Source: a phage
Length of the DNA stretch: 64,000 nucleotides
Assembly: GCA_036439915.1 (NCBI GenBank)
Contig: GCA_036439915.1_3065.1
Strand: one strand, 5' to 3'
The notes beneath the pieces were generated by a model that was given only the letters and a program-made list of their open reading frames with translations, was not told where the DNA came from and ran no database searches. The position numbers and the translations under genes are program-made. Positions 3,819 to 20,502 of this stretch are shown in pieces; position 1 is the first letter of the stretch, and every line of letters starts with the position of its first letter.

Positions 3819-4949
3819 TTATGGATAGGTATAGATGATACCAGTTTCTAAAGCAGTTTTATGAATGATGTATCCATTACGTGATTCTTGAACATCAACT
3901 TCTGGATAGTCTTTCATCATCTTCTGAAGAGTGTAACGATGCAAGTAGTACTTACTATCTGGATCTTCAGTTTTCCAATCTTTACCTTCTTCAGTCATTT
4001 TTTGGATTTCATCCATAACCCACCAACCGCACCAGATGTAAGCTGAAGTACGATGTGGAAGAGGATGAACATAAGGCAATTCACCTTCTGGTTCCGGAGC
4101 AACTTTATCAGTTACCTGAACTTGACCAGTCGCTTTAACTGTTTTGCTATCATAATCAGTCGCTGTAACGACAGCAGTAACTTCAATAGTTTGACTTCCA
4201 ACAGATGAGGTATCGACAGTATATACGTTAGTTGACCCTTCTACAGGAGAAGAATCTTTCTTCCATGAGTAAGTAATTTGTGCTGCGTCAGGTGCGCCAG
4301 TAACATTAGCAGTAAATGTAGCCGAAGCATCTTGCTGAACATTAATAGAAGGAGGAGTCAATGTAACTTGTGGATTCATTGACTTCTTATTAACAGTCAG
4401 TGATACTTCATTAGAAGTAACTTCCTTTGCATCATAATCTGTCGCTGTTACTTGGGCTACGCATTTAATTCTTTTTACTCCACTTGTAGTTGGAGTATAG
4501 CTAAATGTAGAGTTAGTTTCTCCACCAACTTGAGAATCATCAACATACCATTGATACGTAGCAGACGCTCCAGCCGGTTGAGAAGCTAAAGCAGCAGTAA
4601 ATTCAACAGGAGTTCCAATCACTCCAGCAGCAGGACTATCAGGAGTTACAGCTAAGGTAGTTGTCTGTGTCTTATTTTGAACTGTGATAGTTGTTGTCGC
4701 TTCAGCCGTTTCCGGGCCTCCTTCAGAAAGTGTATTTGTTGCAACAACTTTAATTGTTTTTGTTCCAGCAGGTCCTTTTAATACATAATCAAAAGTTGCT
4801 GCTGATCCTTCTTGGGGAGCATTATCTACGCTCCAAGCATAGGTAATAGTTCCACCTCCAGTTTCACCACTGGGTGTAGCAGTAAACTGCTTGGTTTCAT
4901 CAATAACCCCTGTTGGTGTTTTAGGAGTTATATCAACTGTAAAAGCCAT
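3819..4949 (-). CDS. hoc: Hoc, outer capsid decoration protein with Ig-like domains
   Basis: 376 aa (T4 Hoc length); repeated Ig-like segments and C-terminal capsid-binding region match recalled T4 Hoc. Confidence 0.9.
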   Translation of the reverse strand: MAFTVDITPKTPTGVIDETKQFTATPSGETGGGTITYAWSVDNAPQEGSAATFDYVLKGPAGTKTIKVVATNTLSEGGPETAEATTTITVQNKTQTTTLAVTPDSPAAGVIGTPVEFTAALASQPAGASATYQWYVDDSQVGGETNSTFSYTPTTSGVKRIKCVAQVTATDYDAKEVTSNEVSLTVNKKSMNPQVTLTPPSINVQQDASATFTANVTGAPDAAQITYSWKKDSSPVEGSTNVYTVDTSSVGSQTIEVTAVVTATDYDSKTVKATGQVQVTDKVAPEPEGELPYVHPLPHRTSAYIWCGWWVMDEIQKMTEEGKDWKTEDPDSKYYLHRYTLQKMMKDYPEVDVQESRNGYIIHKTALETGIIYTYP

Positions 4950-4958
4950 AAGTTATCC

Positions 4959-5639
4959 TTATTTTAATGTTACGAAAGAAGAGTTGCGTGTTTCACGAAT
5001 TAGAACTGATCCGTCACGATTAATGTAGTAAATTAAGCTAAATAAAGTTTGGTGTGCCGACGCGTGTTCAAAACTAGTTGGGTGAGATTTCCAATCCGGA
5101 GTTTCAGCAATCCACTGGTAAATCCACCAAGGAACAGTGCAGAATCCTGGATTTTTTCCAATCAGCTGAAGATTCGGGCTAAAGTTTTCCGGAAGAGTAA
5201 ATACAGACGGCTTTTCAGATTCAATAATCTCAGCTACAGCCTGTTCGAATTTTTCTTCAACAAAAGGAGTGTCTTCAATCAAAACATCGGTATTTTCGTG
5301 AATTTTATCCGTTTCTACTACTTCAATTTTAATGTCAGATTTAACAGGAGAATCAATCAGAAGTGCTGCTTCTGGATTGACTTCTTCATCGTCATATTTT
5401 AATCCCTCTGCAGCATCAGCAGCATTGATTAAGTCTTTAATAGATAACCCATCAGTCTCTGGCATAGGTTCACTAGCGAGCTTCTGGAGGGCTTCTTCAA
5501 TATCAATAACGATATTATCAAAAGATTTATTCTTTTTGACCTTTATACCAAACTGTTCAGCATATTCAGCTAATTTAGCCTTAGCTTCTTTATTATCATC
5601 AAGAGCCTTCAGCTCTGCAATATAATCTTTATCTATCAT
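4959..5639 (-). CDS. inh: Inh, inhibitor of prohead protease
   Basis: 226 aa, immediately upstream of hoc as in T4. Confidence 0.75.
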   Translation of the reverse strand: MIDKDYIAELKALDDNKEAKAKLAEYAEQFGIKVKKNKSFDNIVIDIEEALQKLASEPMPETDGLSIKDLINAADAAEGLKYDDEEVNPEAALLIDSPVKSDIKIEVVETDKIHENTDVLIEDTPFVEEKFEQAVAEIIESEKPSVFTLPENFSPNLQLIGKNPGFCTVPWWIYQWIAETPDWKSHPTSFEHASAHQTLFSLIYYINRDGSVLIRETRNSSFVTLK

Positions 5640-5652
5640 AATATTTCCTCAG

Positions 5653-5660
5653 TATAAATA
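5653..5660 (+). promoter_or_regulatory. T4-type late promoter (TATAAATA) for uvsW
   Basis: Exact TATAAATA about 30 nt upstream of the uvsW ATG. Confidence 0.55.
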
Positions 5661-5689
5661 TAGATATATTTATTACATGGTATTTAGAC

Positions 5690-7201
5690 ATGACTGACAT
5701 TAAAGTACATTTTTATGATTTTAGTCACGTGAGAATTGATTGTGAAGAAAGTACATTTCATGAACTCCGTGATTTCTTTAGCTTTGAAGCTGATGGGTAT
5801 CGTTTTAATCCGAAGTACAAATATGGCCACTGGGATGGACGAATCCGTCTTTTAGATTATAATCGCCTTCTTCCGTTTGGCTTAGTCGGGCAAATTAAAA
5901 AGTTCTGTGATAACTTTGGCTATAAAGCCTGGATTGACCCGCAAATTAACGAAAAAGAAAAATTATCAAGAAAAGATTTTGATGAATGGCTTTCTAAATT
6001 AGAAATCTATTCAGGAAATAAAAGAATTGAACCGCATTGGTATCAAAAAGATGCAGTGTTCGAAGGATTAGTTAATCGTCGTAGAATTCTTAATCTTCCA
6101 ACATCCGCAGGTAAATCTTTAATTCAAGCTTTGCTTGCACGTTATTATTTGGAAAATTATGAAGGTAAAATTCTTATCATTGTTCCAACAACTGCTCTGA
6201 CAACTCAGATGGCTGATGACTTTGTTGACTATCGTTTATTCAGTCATGCAATGATAAAGAAAATCGGTGGTGGAGCATCAAAAGATGATAAATATAAAAA
6301 TGATGCACCGGTAATTGTTGGTACATGGCAAACTGTAGTAAAACAACCAAAAGAATGGTTCTCACAATTTGGAATGATGATGAACGATGAATGCCATCTT
6401 GCCACAGGAAAAAGTATTTCATCTATCATATCAGGTTTAAATAACTGTATGTTCAAATTTGGTCTATCGGGTTCATTACGTGATGGCAAAGCCAATATCA
6501 TGCAGTATGTTGGAATGTTTGGTGAAATATTTAAGCCAGTAACGACTTCTAAATTAATGGAAGATGGACAAGTAACTGAGCTAAAAATTAATAGTATTTT
6601 TCTTCGCTATCCCGATGAGTTCACTACTAAATTAAAGGGAAAAACTTACCAAGAAGAAATAAAAATTATTACTGGACTCAGTAAAAGAAATAAATGGATC
6701 GCTAAATTAGCTATTAAACTTGCGCAAAAAGATGAAAACGCTTTTGTCATGTTTAAACATGTATCACATGGTAAAGCTATTTTCGATTTAATTAAAAATG
6801 AATACGATAAAGTTTATTACGTATCAGGGGAAGTTGATACTGAAACACGCAACGTAATGAAAACCTTAGCTGAAAACGGTAAAGGAATAATTATAGTAGC
6901 TAGTTATGGTGTATTTTCTACTGGTATTTCAGTTAAAAATCTGCATCACGTTGTTTTAGCACACGGTGTTAAATCTAAAATTATTGTATTGCAAACAATA
7001 GGTCGTGTATTACGTAAGCATGGTTCTAAAACAATCGCAACGGTCTGGGACCTCATTGACGATTGCGGTGTTAAGCCAAAATCTGCTAATACGAAAAAGA
7101 AATATGTTCATTTGAACTATCTTTTAAAACACGGCATTGATCGTATTCAGCGCTACGCAGATGAAAAATTTAATTACGTAATGAAAACAGTTAATTTATA
7201 A
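5690..7201 (+). CDS. uvsW: UvsW DNA helicase (SF2)
   Basis: 503 aa; Walker A PTSAGKS and DECH box (MMMNDECHLATG) visible. Confidence 0.9.
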   Translation: MTDIKVHFYDFSHVRIDCEESTFHELRDFFSFEADGYRFNPKYKYGHWDGRIRLLDYNRLLPFGLVGQIKKFCDNFGYKAWIDPQINEKEKLSRKDFDEWLSKLEIYSGNKRIEPHWYQKDAVFEGLVNRRRILNLPTSAGKSLIQALLARYYLENYEGKILIIVPTTALTTQMADDFVDYRLFSHAMIKKIGGGASKDDKYKNDAPVIVGTWQTVVKQPKEWFSQFGMMMNDECHLATGKSISSIISGLNNCMFKFGLSGSLRDGKANIMQYVGMFGEIFKPVTTSKLMEDGQVTELKINSIFLRYPDEFTTKLKGKTYQEEIKIITGLSKRNKWIAKLAIKLAQKDENAFVMFKHVSHGKAIFDLIKNEYDKVYYVSGEVDTETRNVMKTLAENGKGIIIVASYGVFSTGISVKNLHHVVLAHGVKSKIIVLQTIGRVLRKHGSKTIATVWDLIDDCGVKPKSANTKKKYVHLNYLLKHGIDRIQRYADEKFNYVMKTVNL

Positions 7202-15727: not shown

Positions 15728-15730
15728 CAA

Positions 15731-15760
15731 TGGGGACCGAAAGGTCCCCATATTTTTATT
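15731..15760. terminator. Bidirectional terminator between gene 54 and the convergent alt-region ORF
   Basis: Stem TGGGGACC / GGTCCCCA with GAAA loop, T-runs both sides. Confidence 0.6.
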
Positions 15761-16046
15761 TACGGAACGAAATAAAAGCAGCAACTGAAGCAACTAAACT
15801 GTCTTCAATATAAACTTCAATTTTTACCGGAGCTTCTGACTCAAATTTGCCTGTTACTACACCTTGGAAAATGCTTTCAGTCTGTTCTGGCTTTGAAAAA
15901 TTTTCAGAAGGAAAAATTCCGAACTTTTTATCTGTTCCAAAAATTTTGATAAATTCATCGTAAACTGCTTCATTAAAAGCGTTATCAGCAGGAATAACGC
16001 CTTCAACTACGAGTTCTTGACCTAAAAAGCGCAAAGAAGATTTCAT
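15756..16046 (-). CDS. Hypothetical protein (position of T4 alt.-3)
   Basis: 96-aa ORF with SD GAGGA and its own early-type promoter. Confidence 0.6.
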   Translation of the reverse strand: MKSSLRFLGQELVVEGVIPADNAFNEAVYDEFIKIFGTDKKFGIFPSENFSKPEQTESIFQGVVTGKFESEAPVKIEVYIEDSLVASVAAFISFRK

Positions 16047-16052
16047 TTTGTG

Positions 16053-16108
16053 TTCCTCATGTTATGTCAGTAAGATTATTATAACACAACACGAGGGACT
16101 TGTAAACT
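16053..16108 (-). promoter_or_regulatory. Early-type promoter plus leader, copy 1 of a duplicated cassette
   Basis: Minus strand GTTTAC, 18-nt spacer, TATAAT, SD GAGGA; near-identical to 31846-31902. Confidence 0.5.
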
Positions 16109-18164
16109 ACATTTTGAACTTTTTAGACATTCCGTTGATATTAACCAAAGAAGCCAAGATTTGAGAAACTTCGTTTTCCTCTTCTTTTGATTCTTCTACA
16201 AGGAATTGATTAAATCCAGCCATTGGACGAACTTCACCAGTTTCCATTAGATGGTCGCCATCATATACCGATTCTTCTAATTGTTCAGAAGGAGGAACGA
16301 TTGTGCCTTCGATTAGATACTTGTTATAAGCAGTTTCTTTCATCATGTACGTACTCACTTTATTAATCTTCAGCAAAATTCCACGCGGTAGAATAACTTC
16401 AGCTTCTGATGGAAATCCTGATAAATGTCCTGGAACGATAACTTTGATTCGCTCAGCTCCTTTAATTACCATACCCACGCTAGTTTCAGCATCTTCATTG
16501 GCATACGCAGAATGACTACCCATATGCATTAAATCTTCAGCGTCAACAGAACCTTCTCCTTCACCAGAAAATACTGCACTGGAATCATCTAGGGCCATAT
16601 AGTTTTTACCATACTCACCGAAGATATTTGGTTTAAGCGATGTGGATACGAAGTTCTTGAAATAGAACATTTTATTTTCAATATTATGACGTAAAGTTTT
16701 AAAGGTAACTTCTTGGCCACGGTAAAGCGTAGTTCCTGGAGGAAGAACTGATCCTTTGGCAAAAGCAGAATCCATCGTCTCGATGTGTTTAATAGCTCGT
16801 TCCATATATTCTTCACGGGTAGAATCCGGTTTACCTAAAAGGAACGAGTTCATTTCAACATATGAATCTGCACAATAATCTTCAATTACATCAGACTCAG
16901 CCTGAGTTAATCCTTTTGGGGGTACTTCAGTACTTGCATATTCATACGCTTGAGAAGCAGACTCATTAATCAATTTATAAACGCCATTCATGACAAATTG
17001 AATAATAGCTACCTTTTCATCTGGCGTGGCTTTAGAACCTTTAACTAAATCATTGACAATTTTCTTAATAACATCAAAGCTATTAGAAATATTAATGTCA
17101 GCAAGATCACTTAAAATTTTATCAGTTTTATAATCAAAAAATTCTTTATTCTTTAAATATTCTTGAGAACCTTGATATGATATATCGCTCTGTAACTTGA
17201 TAGATGGATCACGTAAACGCGCATGAGCCAATGCAATATGATTTCGGAAGCTTTCTAATTCATAATCACTAGATTTAAAACGGGAAGCACTTCTCATACC
17301 ACCGATAGCTCCTTTGCTGAAGTTTGAACCAACCTGAATAACGCCGGAGTTCATTGGTCCTTCTGCTTTATATACCGGAACTTTAGATTCAAACTCTTGG
17401 TATTTCTTAGCAGCGAAGCTATCACCCTGAAGCGAAGCATCGACAGTAGAATATTGAGCTTGTGCTGCTAATCGACGACTAATTTTAGTTTTCTGAATAA
17501 CAGCTTGATCCGTGCGCTTATCATTTTCTAAAGCAATAGAAGCGGCAACAGCGACAGCTTTAGGAACAGCATTACCTGTTTTAACATCTACATAAACATC
17601 ACCAACCTTTGATTCAACTTTTGTGAATAACTCAGTTGAAATAGGAGGTACACCTGGAATGTCTTCTAAATTGGCATTTTTACGGTAAACCATAATATAT
17701 GCATATTTCTTATCATAGTCCCAGATTTCTTTTAAAAGAACATATCGACCTGCTCCTTTAGTACGTACTAAACGGTCAGCAATAACTTGAATTTGTCGAG
17801 CTGCGCCATTTGTTTTACTCTTTAGTACGCGGAATAAGCATGCGTCAATTTTGTACTGTTTCATTGTCTGAAGAGCAGTATCAAAAACCGCATTAATGGC
17901 ACCAATTGGATTTCCACCCAAGTTTTTAAGTTTAACTAATGATAGTTTCTCATTGACACCTATCATTACGATATGCATCATTTTATCGCCTGGCTTAACG
18001 TTTTTGTTTGTATCACCGCCAGAGGTGTATGTACAAAATCTAAATCCAGGAAGCACGCTTTCTTCACCTGCTTGAATAGCAAAAATTTGAGGTATTTTAT
18101 GCTTAGGATTTAAGTTAACAACCGGCGCCGAAGCGCCGTCAAATAATTCTGTAATAAGTTCCAT
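16107..18164 (-). CDS. Alt-like mono-ADP-ribosyltransferase, second tandem paralog
   Basis: 685 aa; starts MELITELFD; ART motifs YRGQ, FVSTSL, AEVILPRG; 3 nt after upstream alt copy. Confidence 0.8.
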   Translation of the reverse strand: MELITELFDGASAPVVNLNPKHKIPQIFAIQAGEESVLPGFRFCTYTSGGDTNKNVKPGDKMMHIVMIGVNEKLSLVKLKNLGGNPIGAINAVFDTALQTMKQYKIDACLFRVLKSKTNGAARQIQVIADRLVRTKGAGRYVLLKEIWDYDKKYAYIMVYRKNANLEDIPGVPPISTELFTKVESKVGDVYVDVKTGNAVPKAVAVAASIALENDKRTDQAVIQKTKISRRLAAQAQYSTVDASLQGDSFAAKKYQEFESKVPVYKAEGPMNSGVIQVGSNFSKGAIGGMRSASRFKSSDYELESFRNHIALAHARLRDPSIKLQSDISYQGSQEYLKNKEFFDYKTDKILSDLADINISNSFDVIKKIVNDLVKGSKATPDEKVAIIQFVMNGVYKLINESASQAYEYASTEVPPKGLTQAESDVIEDYCADSYVEMNSFLLGKPDSTREEYMERAIKHIETMDSAFAKGSVLPPGTTLYRGQEVTFKTLRHNIENKMFYFKNFVSTSLKPNIFGEYGKNYMALDDSSAVFSGEGEGSVDAEDLMHMGSHSAYANEDAETSVGMVIKGAERIKVIVPGHLSGFPSEAEVILPRGILLKINKVSTYMMKETAYNKYLIEGTIVPPSEQLEESVYDGDHLMETGEVRPMAGFNQFLVEESKEEENEVSQILASLVNINGMSKKFKM

Positions 18165-18167
18165 GAT

Positions 18168-20264
18168 TTATCCTTGAACGAACTTGTAAGGCATGTTTGT
18201 AATATCTATGCAAGACGCAATAATTCCGAGAGATGATTCTGCTTTCTGTTTAACATTTGATGAAACAAATGATGCAAAGTCAACTCTGTCTTCTATTTCA
18301 ATATCATCTGTCATTGCAACTACTTCACCAGTTTCCATTAGACGGTCACCGTCATAAATTACTGATTCGGTGAGTTCTTCCGTAGTCATAACTTCAGTTT
18401 GAATGAGTTTTGTATTATTAGATGTTGTTCCGTCATTATTAGAAGCATCAGTTATTTTATTAACTTTGACCATCAATCCGCGTGGTAGAATTACTTCAGC
18501 TTCTGTTGCTATTCCGAGACTTCCTGGATATACAACATTAACTTTATGAGCTCCATCAATTGCCCATCCTATTTGAACTTTAACGTATTCAGGATTTTCT
18601 TTATACGCTCTTATTTCGTTTGGATTAATAGTTATTCCTTCTTCATTTTTATCAACTGTTAATTCATTACGAGCTTCTGGTTCTAAAAGACCGATACCAG
18701 CATGTGTAATTCCAAAACGTCCAAAAATGATAGGAGTTAAAGAAGTAGATACAAAATTTCTGAAATAGAACACTTTATTTTTAACTAGCGCTTCGTATAT
18801 AGGAGCAGTCATACTTTGAGCACGATAAACTGTAATGCCTTCTGGTATACGGTCACCATTTTCAAAAGCTGAATCTAAATTATTTATCGCAGATTCAATT
18901 TCTTTTTCACTCATTACATCATATCGTTCTGGATTGTAACGACCCAAAAGAAGATTATTGATGTCAGTATATCCTGAACCACAATACTCTCTAATGCCGC
19001 GCTTTTGTGATGGAGTATATTTAGAACCATCACGGGCAATAGTAATATCAATCATTGGACCTGCACCAATTCCAGAAAAGCTATAAATCATTCGTTTGAG
19101 GAATTTAGTTTTTGCTGCGTTCCAGGAATTTTTAGTTATTTCTTCCCAGACTTCATCTGACTGCCCTTTACGGGTTTTATTATGTTTATCAAGCCAATTA
19201 TCTTTATATTCTTCAAAGAATTTATTAATAGCTGCTGCATACTTCTCTAAACATTTTATTGAAGTGGTTGGTTCATTTTTAATCGCATTGAGAATTACAT
19301 CTTTAATTTTTTCAGAAACTTCATTAACCTCACTTTTTGAAAAGAATTTATAGTCATAGTGAAGTTCATCTGCGGTTCCTTCGGCAATAATTTTTGCTGC
19401 CTTAGTTTTAGAAGCTAATGAATTAATTCCAAGCTTCATTTCTTCTGCTTCGGGAATTAAAGGAGCTGTAGCAGGTTTATTGAAATTAGCTGCGGTAGAT
19501 TCATATTTCTGGAATAATTCGCTTTCAAATCTAGAAGATTCTAATGACTGACTTTGCGCAATTGCTCTACGGGAAATTTTAACTTTAACGATTACAGCTT
19601 GGTCAGAACGTTTATCATTTTCTTGCGCAATAGATGCAGCAATTGCCTCATTTTTAGTTACTTGAGCTCCAGTATCTTTATTGATATAAACATCGCCGAC
19701 TTTCGATTCAACTTTAGTAAAGAGCTCGGTACTAATTTCCGGAACTCCTGGAATGTCTTCTAGTGATACATTTTTGCGATGTATAAGAATATATGCATAC
19801 TTTTTATCATAATCCCAGAGTTCCTTAAGAAGGACGTATCTTCCACCTGAACGACTACGGATAAGTCTATCAGCAATAACTTGAATTTGTCGAGCTTGAC
19901 CAGCAGTTTTAGACTTAAGAATACGGAGCATACAGGCATCAATTTTATACTGACGCATCGTCTGCATTGCAACAGTAAAAACTGAATTGATGTAATTAAT
20001 TGGGCTTGGACCGAGACCTTTTAATTTAGCAATTGAACCTTTAGCAGTTAATGTAAAAGGAACAATATGCATCATTTTATCGCCCATTTTTAAATCGCGA
20101 TTAGTATCACCTCCAGATGTATAGGTACATAAACGAAAGCCTGGTTGTTCAATTGCGTCATCAACGTGAACTGAAAAAATTTGTGGTATTTTCTTCTTTG
20201 GATTTAAGTTTGTAATCGGAAGAGTAGTATCTTCGTCAAATAATTCTGTAATAAGTTCCATCAT
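18168..20264 (-). CDS. alt: Alt ADP-ribosyltransferase (virion-packaged)
   Basis: 698 aa; starts MMELITELFD; ART motifs YRAQ, FVSTSL, AEVILPRG; late promoter upstream; adjacent to gene 30. Confidence 0.85.
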   Translation of the reverse strand: MMELITELFDEDTTLPITNLNPKKKIPQIFSVHVDDAIEQPGFRLCTYTSGGDTNRDLKMGDKMMHIVPFTLTAKGSIAKLKGLGPSPINYINSVFTVAMQTMRQYKIDACMLRILKSKTAGQARQIQVIADRLIRSRSGGRYVLLKELWDYDKKYAYILIHRKNVSLEDIPGVPEISTELFTKVESKVGDVYINKDTGAQVTKNEAIAASIAQENDKRSDQAVIVKVKISRRAIAQSQSLESSRFESELFQKYESTAANFNKPATAPLIPEAEEMKLGINSLASKTKAAKIIAEGTADELHYDYKFFSKSEVNEVSEKIKDVILNAIKNEPTTSIKCLEKYAAAINKFFEEYKDNWLDKHNKTRKGQSDEVWEEITKNSWNAAKTKFLKRMIYSFSGIGAGPMIDITIARDGSKYTPSQKRGIREYCGSGYTDINNLLLGRYNPERYDVMSEKEIESAINNLDSAFENGDRIPEGITVYRAQSMTAPIYEALVKNKVFYFRNFVSTSLTPIIFGRFGITHAGIGLLEPEARNELTVDKNEEGITINPNEIRAYKENPEYVKVQIGWAIDGAHKVNVVYPGSLGIATEAEVILPRGLMVKVNKITDASNNDGTTSNNTKLIQTEVMTTEELTESVIYDGDRLMETGEVVAMTDDIEIEDRVDFASFVSSNVKQKAESSLGIIASCIDITNMPYKFVQG

Positions 20265-20284
20265 ATCCTCTCTAGTGTTTATTC

Positions 20285-20292
20285 TATTTATA
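20285..20292 (-). promoter_or_regulatory. T4-type late promoter (TATAAATA) for alt
   Basis: Minus-strand TATAAATA about 20 nt upstream of alt ATG. Confidence 0.5.
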
Positions 20293-20313
20293 AAATTAAA
20301 GGCCCGAAGGCCT

Positions 20314-20502
20314 TTAATAATCTAGTGGTAAGAGAGTACGATATATTTCAAACTTTGGCCCTTTTTCATAGGCATCAAATGTTTCTGTAAATTTATTATA
20401 AGCATATGCATCTACAAATTCAAGAACGATTTGTGATACAGAAGTAGAAACATCTCCACCTTCTTTTTGAGCCACGACAATTGTTTCTAAGTAAGCTTTC
20501 AT
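20314..20502 (-). CDS. Hypothetical small protein between gene 30 and alt
   Basis: 62-aa ORF; start overlaps gene 30 stop. Confidence 0.5.
   Translation of the reverse strand: MKAYLETIVVAQKEGGDVSTSVSQIVLEFVDAYAYNKFTETFDAYEKGPKFEIYRTLLPLDY

Follow-up and report, generated by a model that had tools for sequence, protein, structure and literature searches.

Two tandem Alt-type ADP-ribosyltransferase genes form the usual alt locus of most T-even phages, with laboratory T4 as the exception

The Alt protein of phage T4 is an NAD+--arginine ADP-ribosyltransferase (ART) that has Arg265 of the RNA polymerase alpha subunit as a target. ModA and ModB are small early T4 proteins that, unlike T4 Alt, are not packaged and are encoded elsewhere in the genome. 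Like the Alt proteins, both have been placed in the R-S-E Alt/VIP2 clade of phage ARTs (PMC5512222, PMC9503650). Each head contains about 40 copies of T4 Alt, a core-associated protein that enters the host together with the DNA (PMC9026906). The protein is trimmed at both ends by gp21, which cleaves off six residues at the N-terminus (ITE-6) and 63 at the C-terminus (LTE-619) to leave a product of 68.2 kDa by mass spectrometry (PMC5694885); the mass computed here for T4 Alt residues 7-619 is equally 68.2 kDa, which confirms the mapping of the cleavages. The small T4 genes alt.-1 and alt.-2 were listed as a paralogous alt duplication by Nolan et al. (2006), together with a full-length duplicate in 44RR (ORF187c) (PMC1524935), and a 2026 paper noted that 6phi13 and SHFML-11 have a pair of paralogous Alt-like proteins with 43% identity (PMC13600099). 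Here, the alt locus was analysed in a stretch of 64,000 nucleotides (nt) of phage DNA (contig GCA_036439915.1_3065.1 of GenBank assembly GCA_036439915.1; hereafter the window), in which two full-length Alt-type genes, designated copy 1 and copy 2, lie in tandem:

18168..20264, minus strand: copy 1, the alt orthologue with a T2-type cassette allele; 698 amino acids (aa) from the first ATG, MMELITELFD start.
16107..18164, minus strand: copy 2, an intact full-length alt paralogue (its T4 remnant being alt.-1/alt.-2); 685 aa, MELITELFD start.

A first-pass annotation of this DNA had recognized two minus-strand open reading frames (ORFs) of 698 and 685 aa, 3 nt apart and both starting with MELITELFD, and had proposed that they are tandem, intact Alt-type ART genes. 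The ORF list agrees with this description, the gap occupying positions 18165-18167 and copy 1 carrying one extra M, and the proposed identity was borne out by domain matches and R-S-ExE cores in both copies. PF03496 (ADPrib_exo_Tox) matched copy 1 at 1e-37 and copy 2 at 3e-20, and PHROG 802, 'Alt-like RNA polymerase ADP-ribosyltransferase', covered both products end to end (2.5e-272 and 4.5e-255, respectively). The arginine, STS and catalytic glutamate motifs that had been read in both copies were verified at the level of codon coordinates, neither copy lacking any of the R-S-E residues. In copy 1, these are YRAQ at 18816-18827, STS at 18741-18749 and EAEVILPRG at 18477-18503; in copy 2, they are YRGQ, with R482 at 16719-16721, STS at 16638-16646 and EAE (E587-x-E589) at 16398-16406. 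No further Alt-family gene was found in the window by tblastn.

This two-copy arrangement is the normal, already annotated state of most T-even phages, from which laboratory T4 departs. Taken over its full 4.9 kb, the two-gene region was found in 364 phage records (90-98% identity, at least 80% coverage), and the segment that T4 has lost was present in 402 phage records at 94-98% identity, the denominator being the 522 records that carry this gp54. T2, T6, RB32, AR1 and PP01 all possess the 685-aa gene together with alt, 3 nt apart. With SHFML-11/6phi13 and about 400 Tequatrovirus records, they share with the window the same gene at the same position with the same 3-nt spacing (94-98% nucleotide identity), and nothing material distinguishes copy 2 from these annotated second Alt-like genes, the window being at most 98% identical to its nearest records. 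The T4-type deletion junction occurred in 91 records, including T4 stocks, RB55, RB59, HY03, SG1 and others. The suggestion, implicit in the first-pass annotation, that two copies are unusual thus did not hold, since 402 of about 522 records, those of T2, T6, RB32, AR1 and PP01 among them, carry the segment missing from T4. Two copies are also the standard annotated state in reference T-even genomes, RefSeq giving both genes the label 'Alt-like RNA polymerase ADP-ribosyltransferase'. As early as 2006, the RB32 record read 'alt.-2: apparent insertion; similar to alt'. GenBank labels of the second gene are inconsistent and include 'hypothetical protein', 'alt.-2' and, in GEP001, 'DNA ligase'.

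Comparison with T4 establishes copy 1 as the alt orthologue. It occupies the same position as T4 alt, between alt.1 and the gene 54 side, behind the same late promoter, and it carries the ITE-6 and LTE motifs. Overall identity to T4 Alt (NP_049811) is 70%, the two proteins being near-identical over aa 1-245 and the last ~100 residues and diverged between. This difference corresponds to a central+ART cassette that in copy 1 is of the T2 type, its ART domain being 64% and its central region about 32% identical to those of T4. In copy 2, the entire architecture of T4 Alt and its R, S-T-S and E-x-E residues are retained, but overall identity to T4 Alt is only 42%. The statement in the first-pass annotation that T4 has a single alt of 682 aa, and small ORFs alt.-1 and alt.-2 where the window has its second copy, agrees with the T4 record. 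Moreover, T4 alt.-1 (NP_049810) and alt.-2 (NP_049809) represent one and the same gene as copy 2. T4 retains the first 348 nt of this gene at 94.5% identity, and collinearity extends over the final 11 nt of copy 2 and the flank downstream of it. Within the T4 remnant region (L001, positions 5066-5451), alt.-1 corresponds to copy 2 aa 1-54 followed by a frameshift, and alt.-2 to aa 62-117 followed by an out-of-frame tail. In the DNA alignment, the frameshift results from an A-run near window position 18005 being one A shorter in T4, and the remainder is accounted for by a single deletion:

16118..17816, minus strand: copy 2 segment of 1699 bp deleted in T4, with the junction at an imperfect 9-nt repeat, CTAAA(G/A)AGT (DNA alignment with T4).

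In the T4 record, alt.-1/alt.-2 carry the note 'an old duplication of the first part of gene alt'. A better interpretation than such a partial 5' duplication of alt is that they are the internally deleted remnant of a full-length paralogue.

By BLASTP, the two copies are 42% identical to each other (E = 6e-159), and this identity is unevenly distributed, with 68% over aa 1-238, 22% over aa 239-410, 34% in the ART domain (aa 411-625) and 40% in the C-terminal tail. The shared N-terminal region and strongly divergent centre noticed in the first-pass annotation were therefore both recovered by pairwise alignment (68% versus 22%). The domains of copy 2 are as follows:

17451..18164, minus strand: N-terminal domain, aa 1-238, with the ITE-6 gp21 cleavage motif; the region kept between both copies.
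16935..17450, minus strand: central all-helical region, aa 239-410, helical in the model; the most divergent part, 22% identical to copy 1.
16290..16934, minus strand: ART catalytic domain, aa 411-625, with R482, S-T-S and E587-x-E589.
16107..16289, minus strand: C-terminal tail with LEE-631 and YDGDHLMETGE; a putative gp21 processing site and putative 54-aa propeptide.

In a 57-sequence family alignment, Y430, D465, R482, S507, E587, E589, P593, R594 and G595 (copy 2 numbering) were strictly invariant, a set that comprises the Arg / S-T-S / E-x-E signature and the LPRG turn. R482, S507, S509, E587 and E589 were invariant or nearly so in both a 17-sequence alignment and the 57-sequence one, and both window copies carry all five. 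An exhaustive representative search of 1.84 billion proteins returned only 115 clusters at 50% identity, and the Alt family is therefore confined to T4-like phages. Precomputed annotations of proteins 98% identical to copy 2, and of a hybrid gene described below, include PF26846 (N-terminal Tevenvirinae_ADPRT) as well as PF03496; our Pfam scan of both window proteins, run with a model set that lacks PF26846, gave no N-terminal domain match, and NCBIfam offered no model for either copy.

The N-terminal domain was also considered as a GNAT acyl-CoA N-acyltransferase and was not filed as such, because the acetyl-CoA binding motif A (Q/R-x-x-G-x-G/A) expected after strand beta-4 is lacking. Following strand 108-114, the loop sequence is K-T-N-G-A-A in copy 2 and K-T-A-G-Q-A in copy 1, with only G120 conserved family-wide and a consensus of KKMKGQ. 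Recent gene conversion was rejected as the source of the 68% N-terminal identity, since synonymous divergence (dS) between the copies is saturated (about 1.5) there too. The identity might instead stem from a conversion in the distant past or from co-evolution with the prohead core of the same phage, given that the N-terminal domains group by genus (see below).

Outside phages, the closest relatives are arginine-specific R-S-E toxins, namely the C3-like, VIP2, iota-CDTa and Vis enzymes. The 57-sequence family profile reached C3, Certhrax, VIP2 and iota toxins by sequence, copy 2 alone gave no match among PDB chain sequences, and the modelled fold of its ART domain matches Vis, C3, CDTa and Certhrax. 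PDB-sequence, profile and fold searches turned up no solved structure of an Alt protein. In contrast to these toxins, Alt proteins add a phage-specific N-terminal and helical extension of ~410 aa, an insert of ~78 aa between S-T-S and E-x-E, and propeptides processed by gp21 (assigned from motifs in the window copies). Nor do they have a partner for secretion or translocation, as it is the injecting phage that delivers them.

By every available sequence test, copy 2 behaves as a working gene under strong purifying selection. Its ORF is intact in all six phages compared (window, PP01, T2, T6, RB32 and AR1), and the ratio of nonsynonymous to synonymous divergence (dN/dS) ranges from 0.03 to 0.065, with dS up to 0.26. 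The gp21 motifs occur at aligned positions in both copies: ITE-6 and LTE-632 (18360-18374) in copy 1, and ITE-6 and LEE-631, followed by the conserved YDGDHLMETGE block, in copy 2. LEE-631 aligns with LTE-619 of T4 Alt, and E6 and E631 are invariant or nearly so across the family alignment. Copy 2 looks fully competent for both packaging and catalysis.

The central+ART region of copy 1, corresponding to window positions 18400-19560, occurs in Tequatrovirus as two cassette alleles that are conserved within each type, share ~68% nucleotide identity and are separated by a nonsynonymous divergence (dN) of 0.21. About 355 records carry the T2-type allele, which is the one present in the window, T2, T6, RB32 and PP01; the T4-type allele is found in T4 and AR1. 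AR1 and pSs-1 combine a T4-type alt with an intact copy 2, and SG1 combines a T2-type alt with the T4-type deletion; the copy 1 allele and the state of copy 2 therefore assort independently. A similar locus occurs in the genus Dhakavirus, where alt.1 and alt.-3 of IME341/JS10 flank a pair of Alt genes separated by 3 nt. In neighbour-joining trees, the Dhakavirus gene-54-proximal copy grouped with copy 2 (46% identity in the central region, 56% in the ART domain), whereas the N-terminal domains grouped by genus and not by copy. The exchange unit therefore appears to be a central+ART cassette carried on a lineage-specific N-terminal module. In addition, the T2-type ART domain shares 95% protein identity with copy 1 of Dhakavirus IME341 (L011, positions 4278-6362), the N-terminal domains being only 46% identical, a pattern that points to exchange of cassettes between genera. 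RB69 and PEi20, unlike the window, have a single alt.

Probable recombination between the two copies was also noted. In three metagenome-derived proteins (P0004, P0006 and P0007), the N-terminus of copy 1 is joined to the body of copy 2:

L007 5001-7055, L008 5001-7061 and L009 5001-7061: hybrid alt genes on Logan contigs (SRR24155011, DRR277896, SRR19633722).

A 65-kb contig has no alt gene other than the hybrid between alt.1 and alt.-3. The crossovers are clean and lie at nt about 550, 325 and 663, with 11, 2 and 8 nt of identity at the junctions. A collapse during de Bruijn assembly is an unlikely origin, given that the crossovers fall at different sites with 2-11 nt of identity and that the longest identical stretches between the window copies (~30 nt) lie away from them. 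The hybrids, although known from short-read contigs, probably arose by natural homeologous recombination with loss of the copy 1 cassette.

Taken together, we consider that the ordinary Tequatrovirus alt locus encodes Alt plus an intact paralogue and that, with a probability of roughly 70%, the two would be co-transcribed late, packaged, injected and directed at two target repertoires. Transcription would start from the following element:

20285..20292, minus strand: T4-type late promoter TATAAATA ahead of copy 1; sole exact match within 15.7-20.6 kb.

The observation that the only late promoter lies upstream of the gene-30-proximal copy was thus confirmed, and no one-mismatch variant was found within ~430 nt upstream of copy 2. 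TATAAATA probably drives both alt genes, a single bicistronic late message being the most economical arrangement because it is the sole late promoter ahead of the pair. Copy 1 probably starts at its second ATG, at 20261, which is the T4 Alt start and would give 697 aa; this codon is favoured because it fits the spacing of a GAGG Shine-Dalgarno sequence. Copy 2 has an AAGGA ribosome-binding site 6 nt ahead of its ATG, within the 3' end of copy 1, and would be translated from it, 3 nt past the copy 1 stop codon. Each product is predicted to be a precursor of ~76-78 kDa with a conserved N-terminus bearing the ITE-6 propeptide site, a variable helical middle, an arginine-specific ART domain of the C3/VIP2 type (R, S-T-S, E-x-E) and a C-terminal propeptide after L-x-E. 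By analogy with T4 Alt, both precursors would enter the prohead core and be trimmed at both ends by gp21, copy 2 giving a predicted mature form of 69.1 kDa (aa 7-631). Both would then be injected with the DNA and would mono-ADP-ribosylate host proteins at arginine, the two divergent cassettes providing two target repertoires. Co-transcription, packaging of both products and differing targets, all proposed in the first-pass annotation, can reasonably be inferred, and the gp21 motifs and purifying selection described above strengthen the case.

Several points weigh against this scheme. T4 and 90 other records without copy 2 are viable, and the natural hybrids without a copy 1 cassette apparently are as well; neither cassette is therefore essential, and the paralogues could be partly redundant. 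The proposal of different targets is drawn only from the sequence divergence between the copies, whose central regions and ART domains are 22% and 34% identical, respectively. L-x-E motifs are short, with seven in copy 2, and their presence alone is no proof of cleavage. Furthermore, the open-access literature yielded annotation-level mentions of the second paralogue (PMC1524935, PMC13600099) and no experimental work on copy 2, whether virion proteomics, enzymology or a mutant phenotype; PMC12373910 says nothing about Alt.

Alternatively, copy 2 might be an active late ART that is packaged marginally or not at all and acts in the producing cell late in infection. Its position as second cistron could lower expression and would agree with such a role; however, the N-terminal region is 68% identical to that of copy 1 with an identical ITE-6, and L-x-E and YDGD..ETGE lie at the C-terminal cleavage position of T4 Alt, features that make sense only for a protein processed in the prohead, so that this alternative is judged unlikely. 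Injection of copy 2 for a purpose mainly other than RNA polymerase reprogramming is a further option, in which it would serve counter-defence by inactivating host toxins or immune proteins, by modifying a non-protein substrate, or by RNAylation as performed by ModB. T4 Alt, for its part, ADP-ribosylates MazF. The central+ART cassettes indeed act as exchangeable, fast-diverging modules typical of conflict genes, as seen in the dN of 0.21 between copy 1 alleles, in the 95% ART identity with Dhakavirus set against 46% at the N-terminus, and in a presence/absence polymorphism that runs in both directions. The E-x-E motif, however, points to arginine in proteins, as in Alt, and this proposal, which we regard as quite improbable, would refine rather than exclude the scheme of two packaged and injected ARTs. 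That copy 2 is a redundant duplicate becoming a pseudogene, as in T4, and contributing nothing is hardly credible: T4 and the phages of 90 other records are viable with a frameshifted, internally deleted remnant, but the selection analysis effectively refutes this view, the 685-aa ORF being intact in six phages at up to 26% synonymous difference and a dN/dS of 0.03-0.065, the gene occurring in 402 records with all catalytic and processing motifs kept, and the copy-2-type cassette being found in the genus Dhakavirus as well.

On a broader and more tentative view, to which we give somewhat less than even odds, the T-even alt locus might operate as an effector-cassette system in which copy 2 is a second injected ART with its own host targets, perhaps defence proteins. 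A lineage-specific N-terminal module, with a weakly GNAT-like fold, and gp21-cleavable propeptides would load the attached cargo into the capsid. At least three interchangeable central+ART types (T4-type alt, T2-type alt and copy 2) would circulate, passing from one genus to another, disappearing as in T4, or becoming fused through homeologous recombination as in L007-L009. If this were true, fifty years of work on T4 would have missed copy 2 because the laboratory strain deleted it.

As a genomic observation, the locus in the window matters little by itself, being one more example of a majority state that is already annotated. Its interest lies in T4, the model phage for phage ADP-ribosylation, being a natural deletion mutant for the second Alt paralogue, a circumstance that the note in the T4 record understates. 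The paralogue is strongly conserved, yet experimentally uncharacterised within the open-access literature searched. Comparing T2 or T6 with and without copy 2 could bring to light another group of host proteins that are modified within seconds of the onset of infection.

The gene order around the pair is that of the T4 alt locus. The minus strand carries, in this order, alt.-3 (DUF5498), copy 2, copy 1, alt.1 (Phage_blade) and the DNA ligase gene 30; the plus-strand neighbours are gp29, gp48 and gp54, so that the alt pair lies behind its late promoter on the strand opposite the baseplate genes. The flanking genes and the additional regulatory elements are as follows:

20314..20502, minus strand: alt.1, the upstream neighbour, 62 aa, Phage_blade (PF24647 at 1e-29); position as in T4.
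20298..20315, minus strand: hairpin AAAGGCC-TTCG-GGCCTTT (AAAGGCCTTCGGGCCTTT), then AATTTT, beginning inside the alt.1 stop codon; read from the sequence.
16078..16106, minus strand: early-type sigma-70 promoter TTTACA-17-TATAAT, between the copy 2 stop codon and alt.-3; 11/12 consensus positions, extended TG.
15756..16046, minus strand: alt.-3, the downstream neighbour, 96 aa, DUF5498 (PF17602 at 1.4e-64); position as in T4.

Several GenBank records label alt.1 as 'siderophore-interacting protein'. The hairpin at its end looks like a terminator for early transcripts arriving from upstream, although the consensus terminator scan did not report it. The AATTTT tail of the hairpin extends into the first base of TATAAATA, forming a compact terminator/late-promoter junction at 20285-20315. 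At the other end of the pair, alt.-3 is provided with its own strong early-type promoter immediately after the copy 2 stop codon. C-terminal extensions of T4 Alt.-3 have been reported to allow escape from the CmdTAC defence system (PMC11618068); in the window, Alt.-3 is of normal length (96 aa). Finally, a perfect hairpin with a 9-bp stem, ATGGGGACC-GAAA-GGTCCCCAT, is located at 15730-15751 between the converging genes 54 and alt.-3; it scores as a terminator on both strands, and its T4 counterpart differs by 2 nt.

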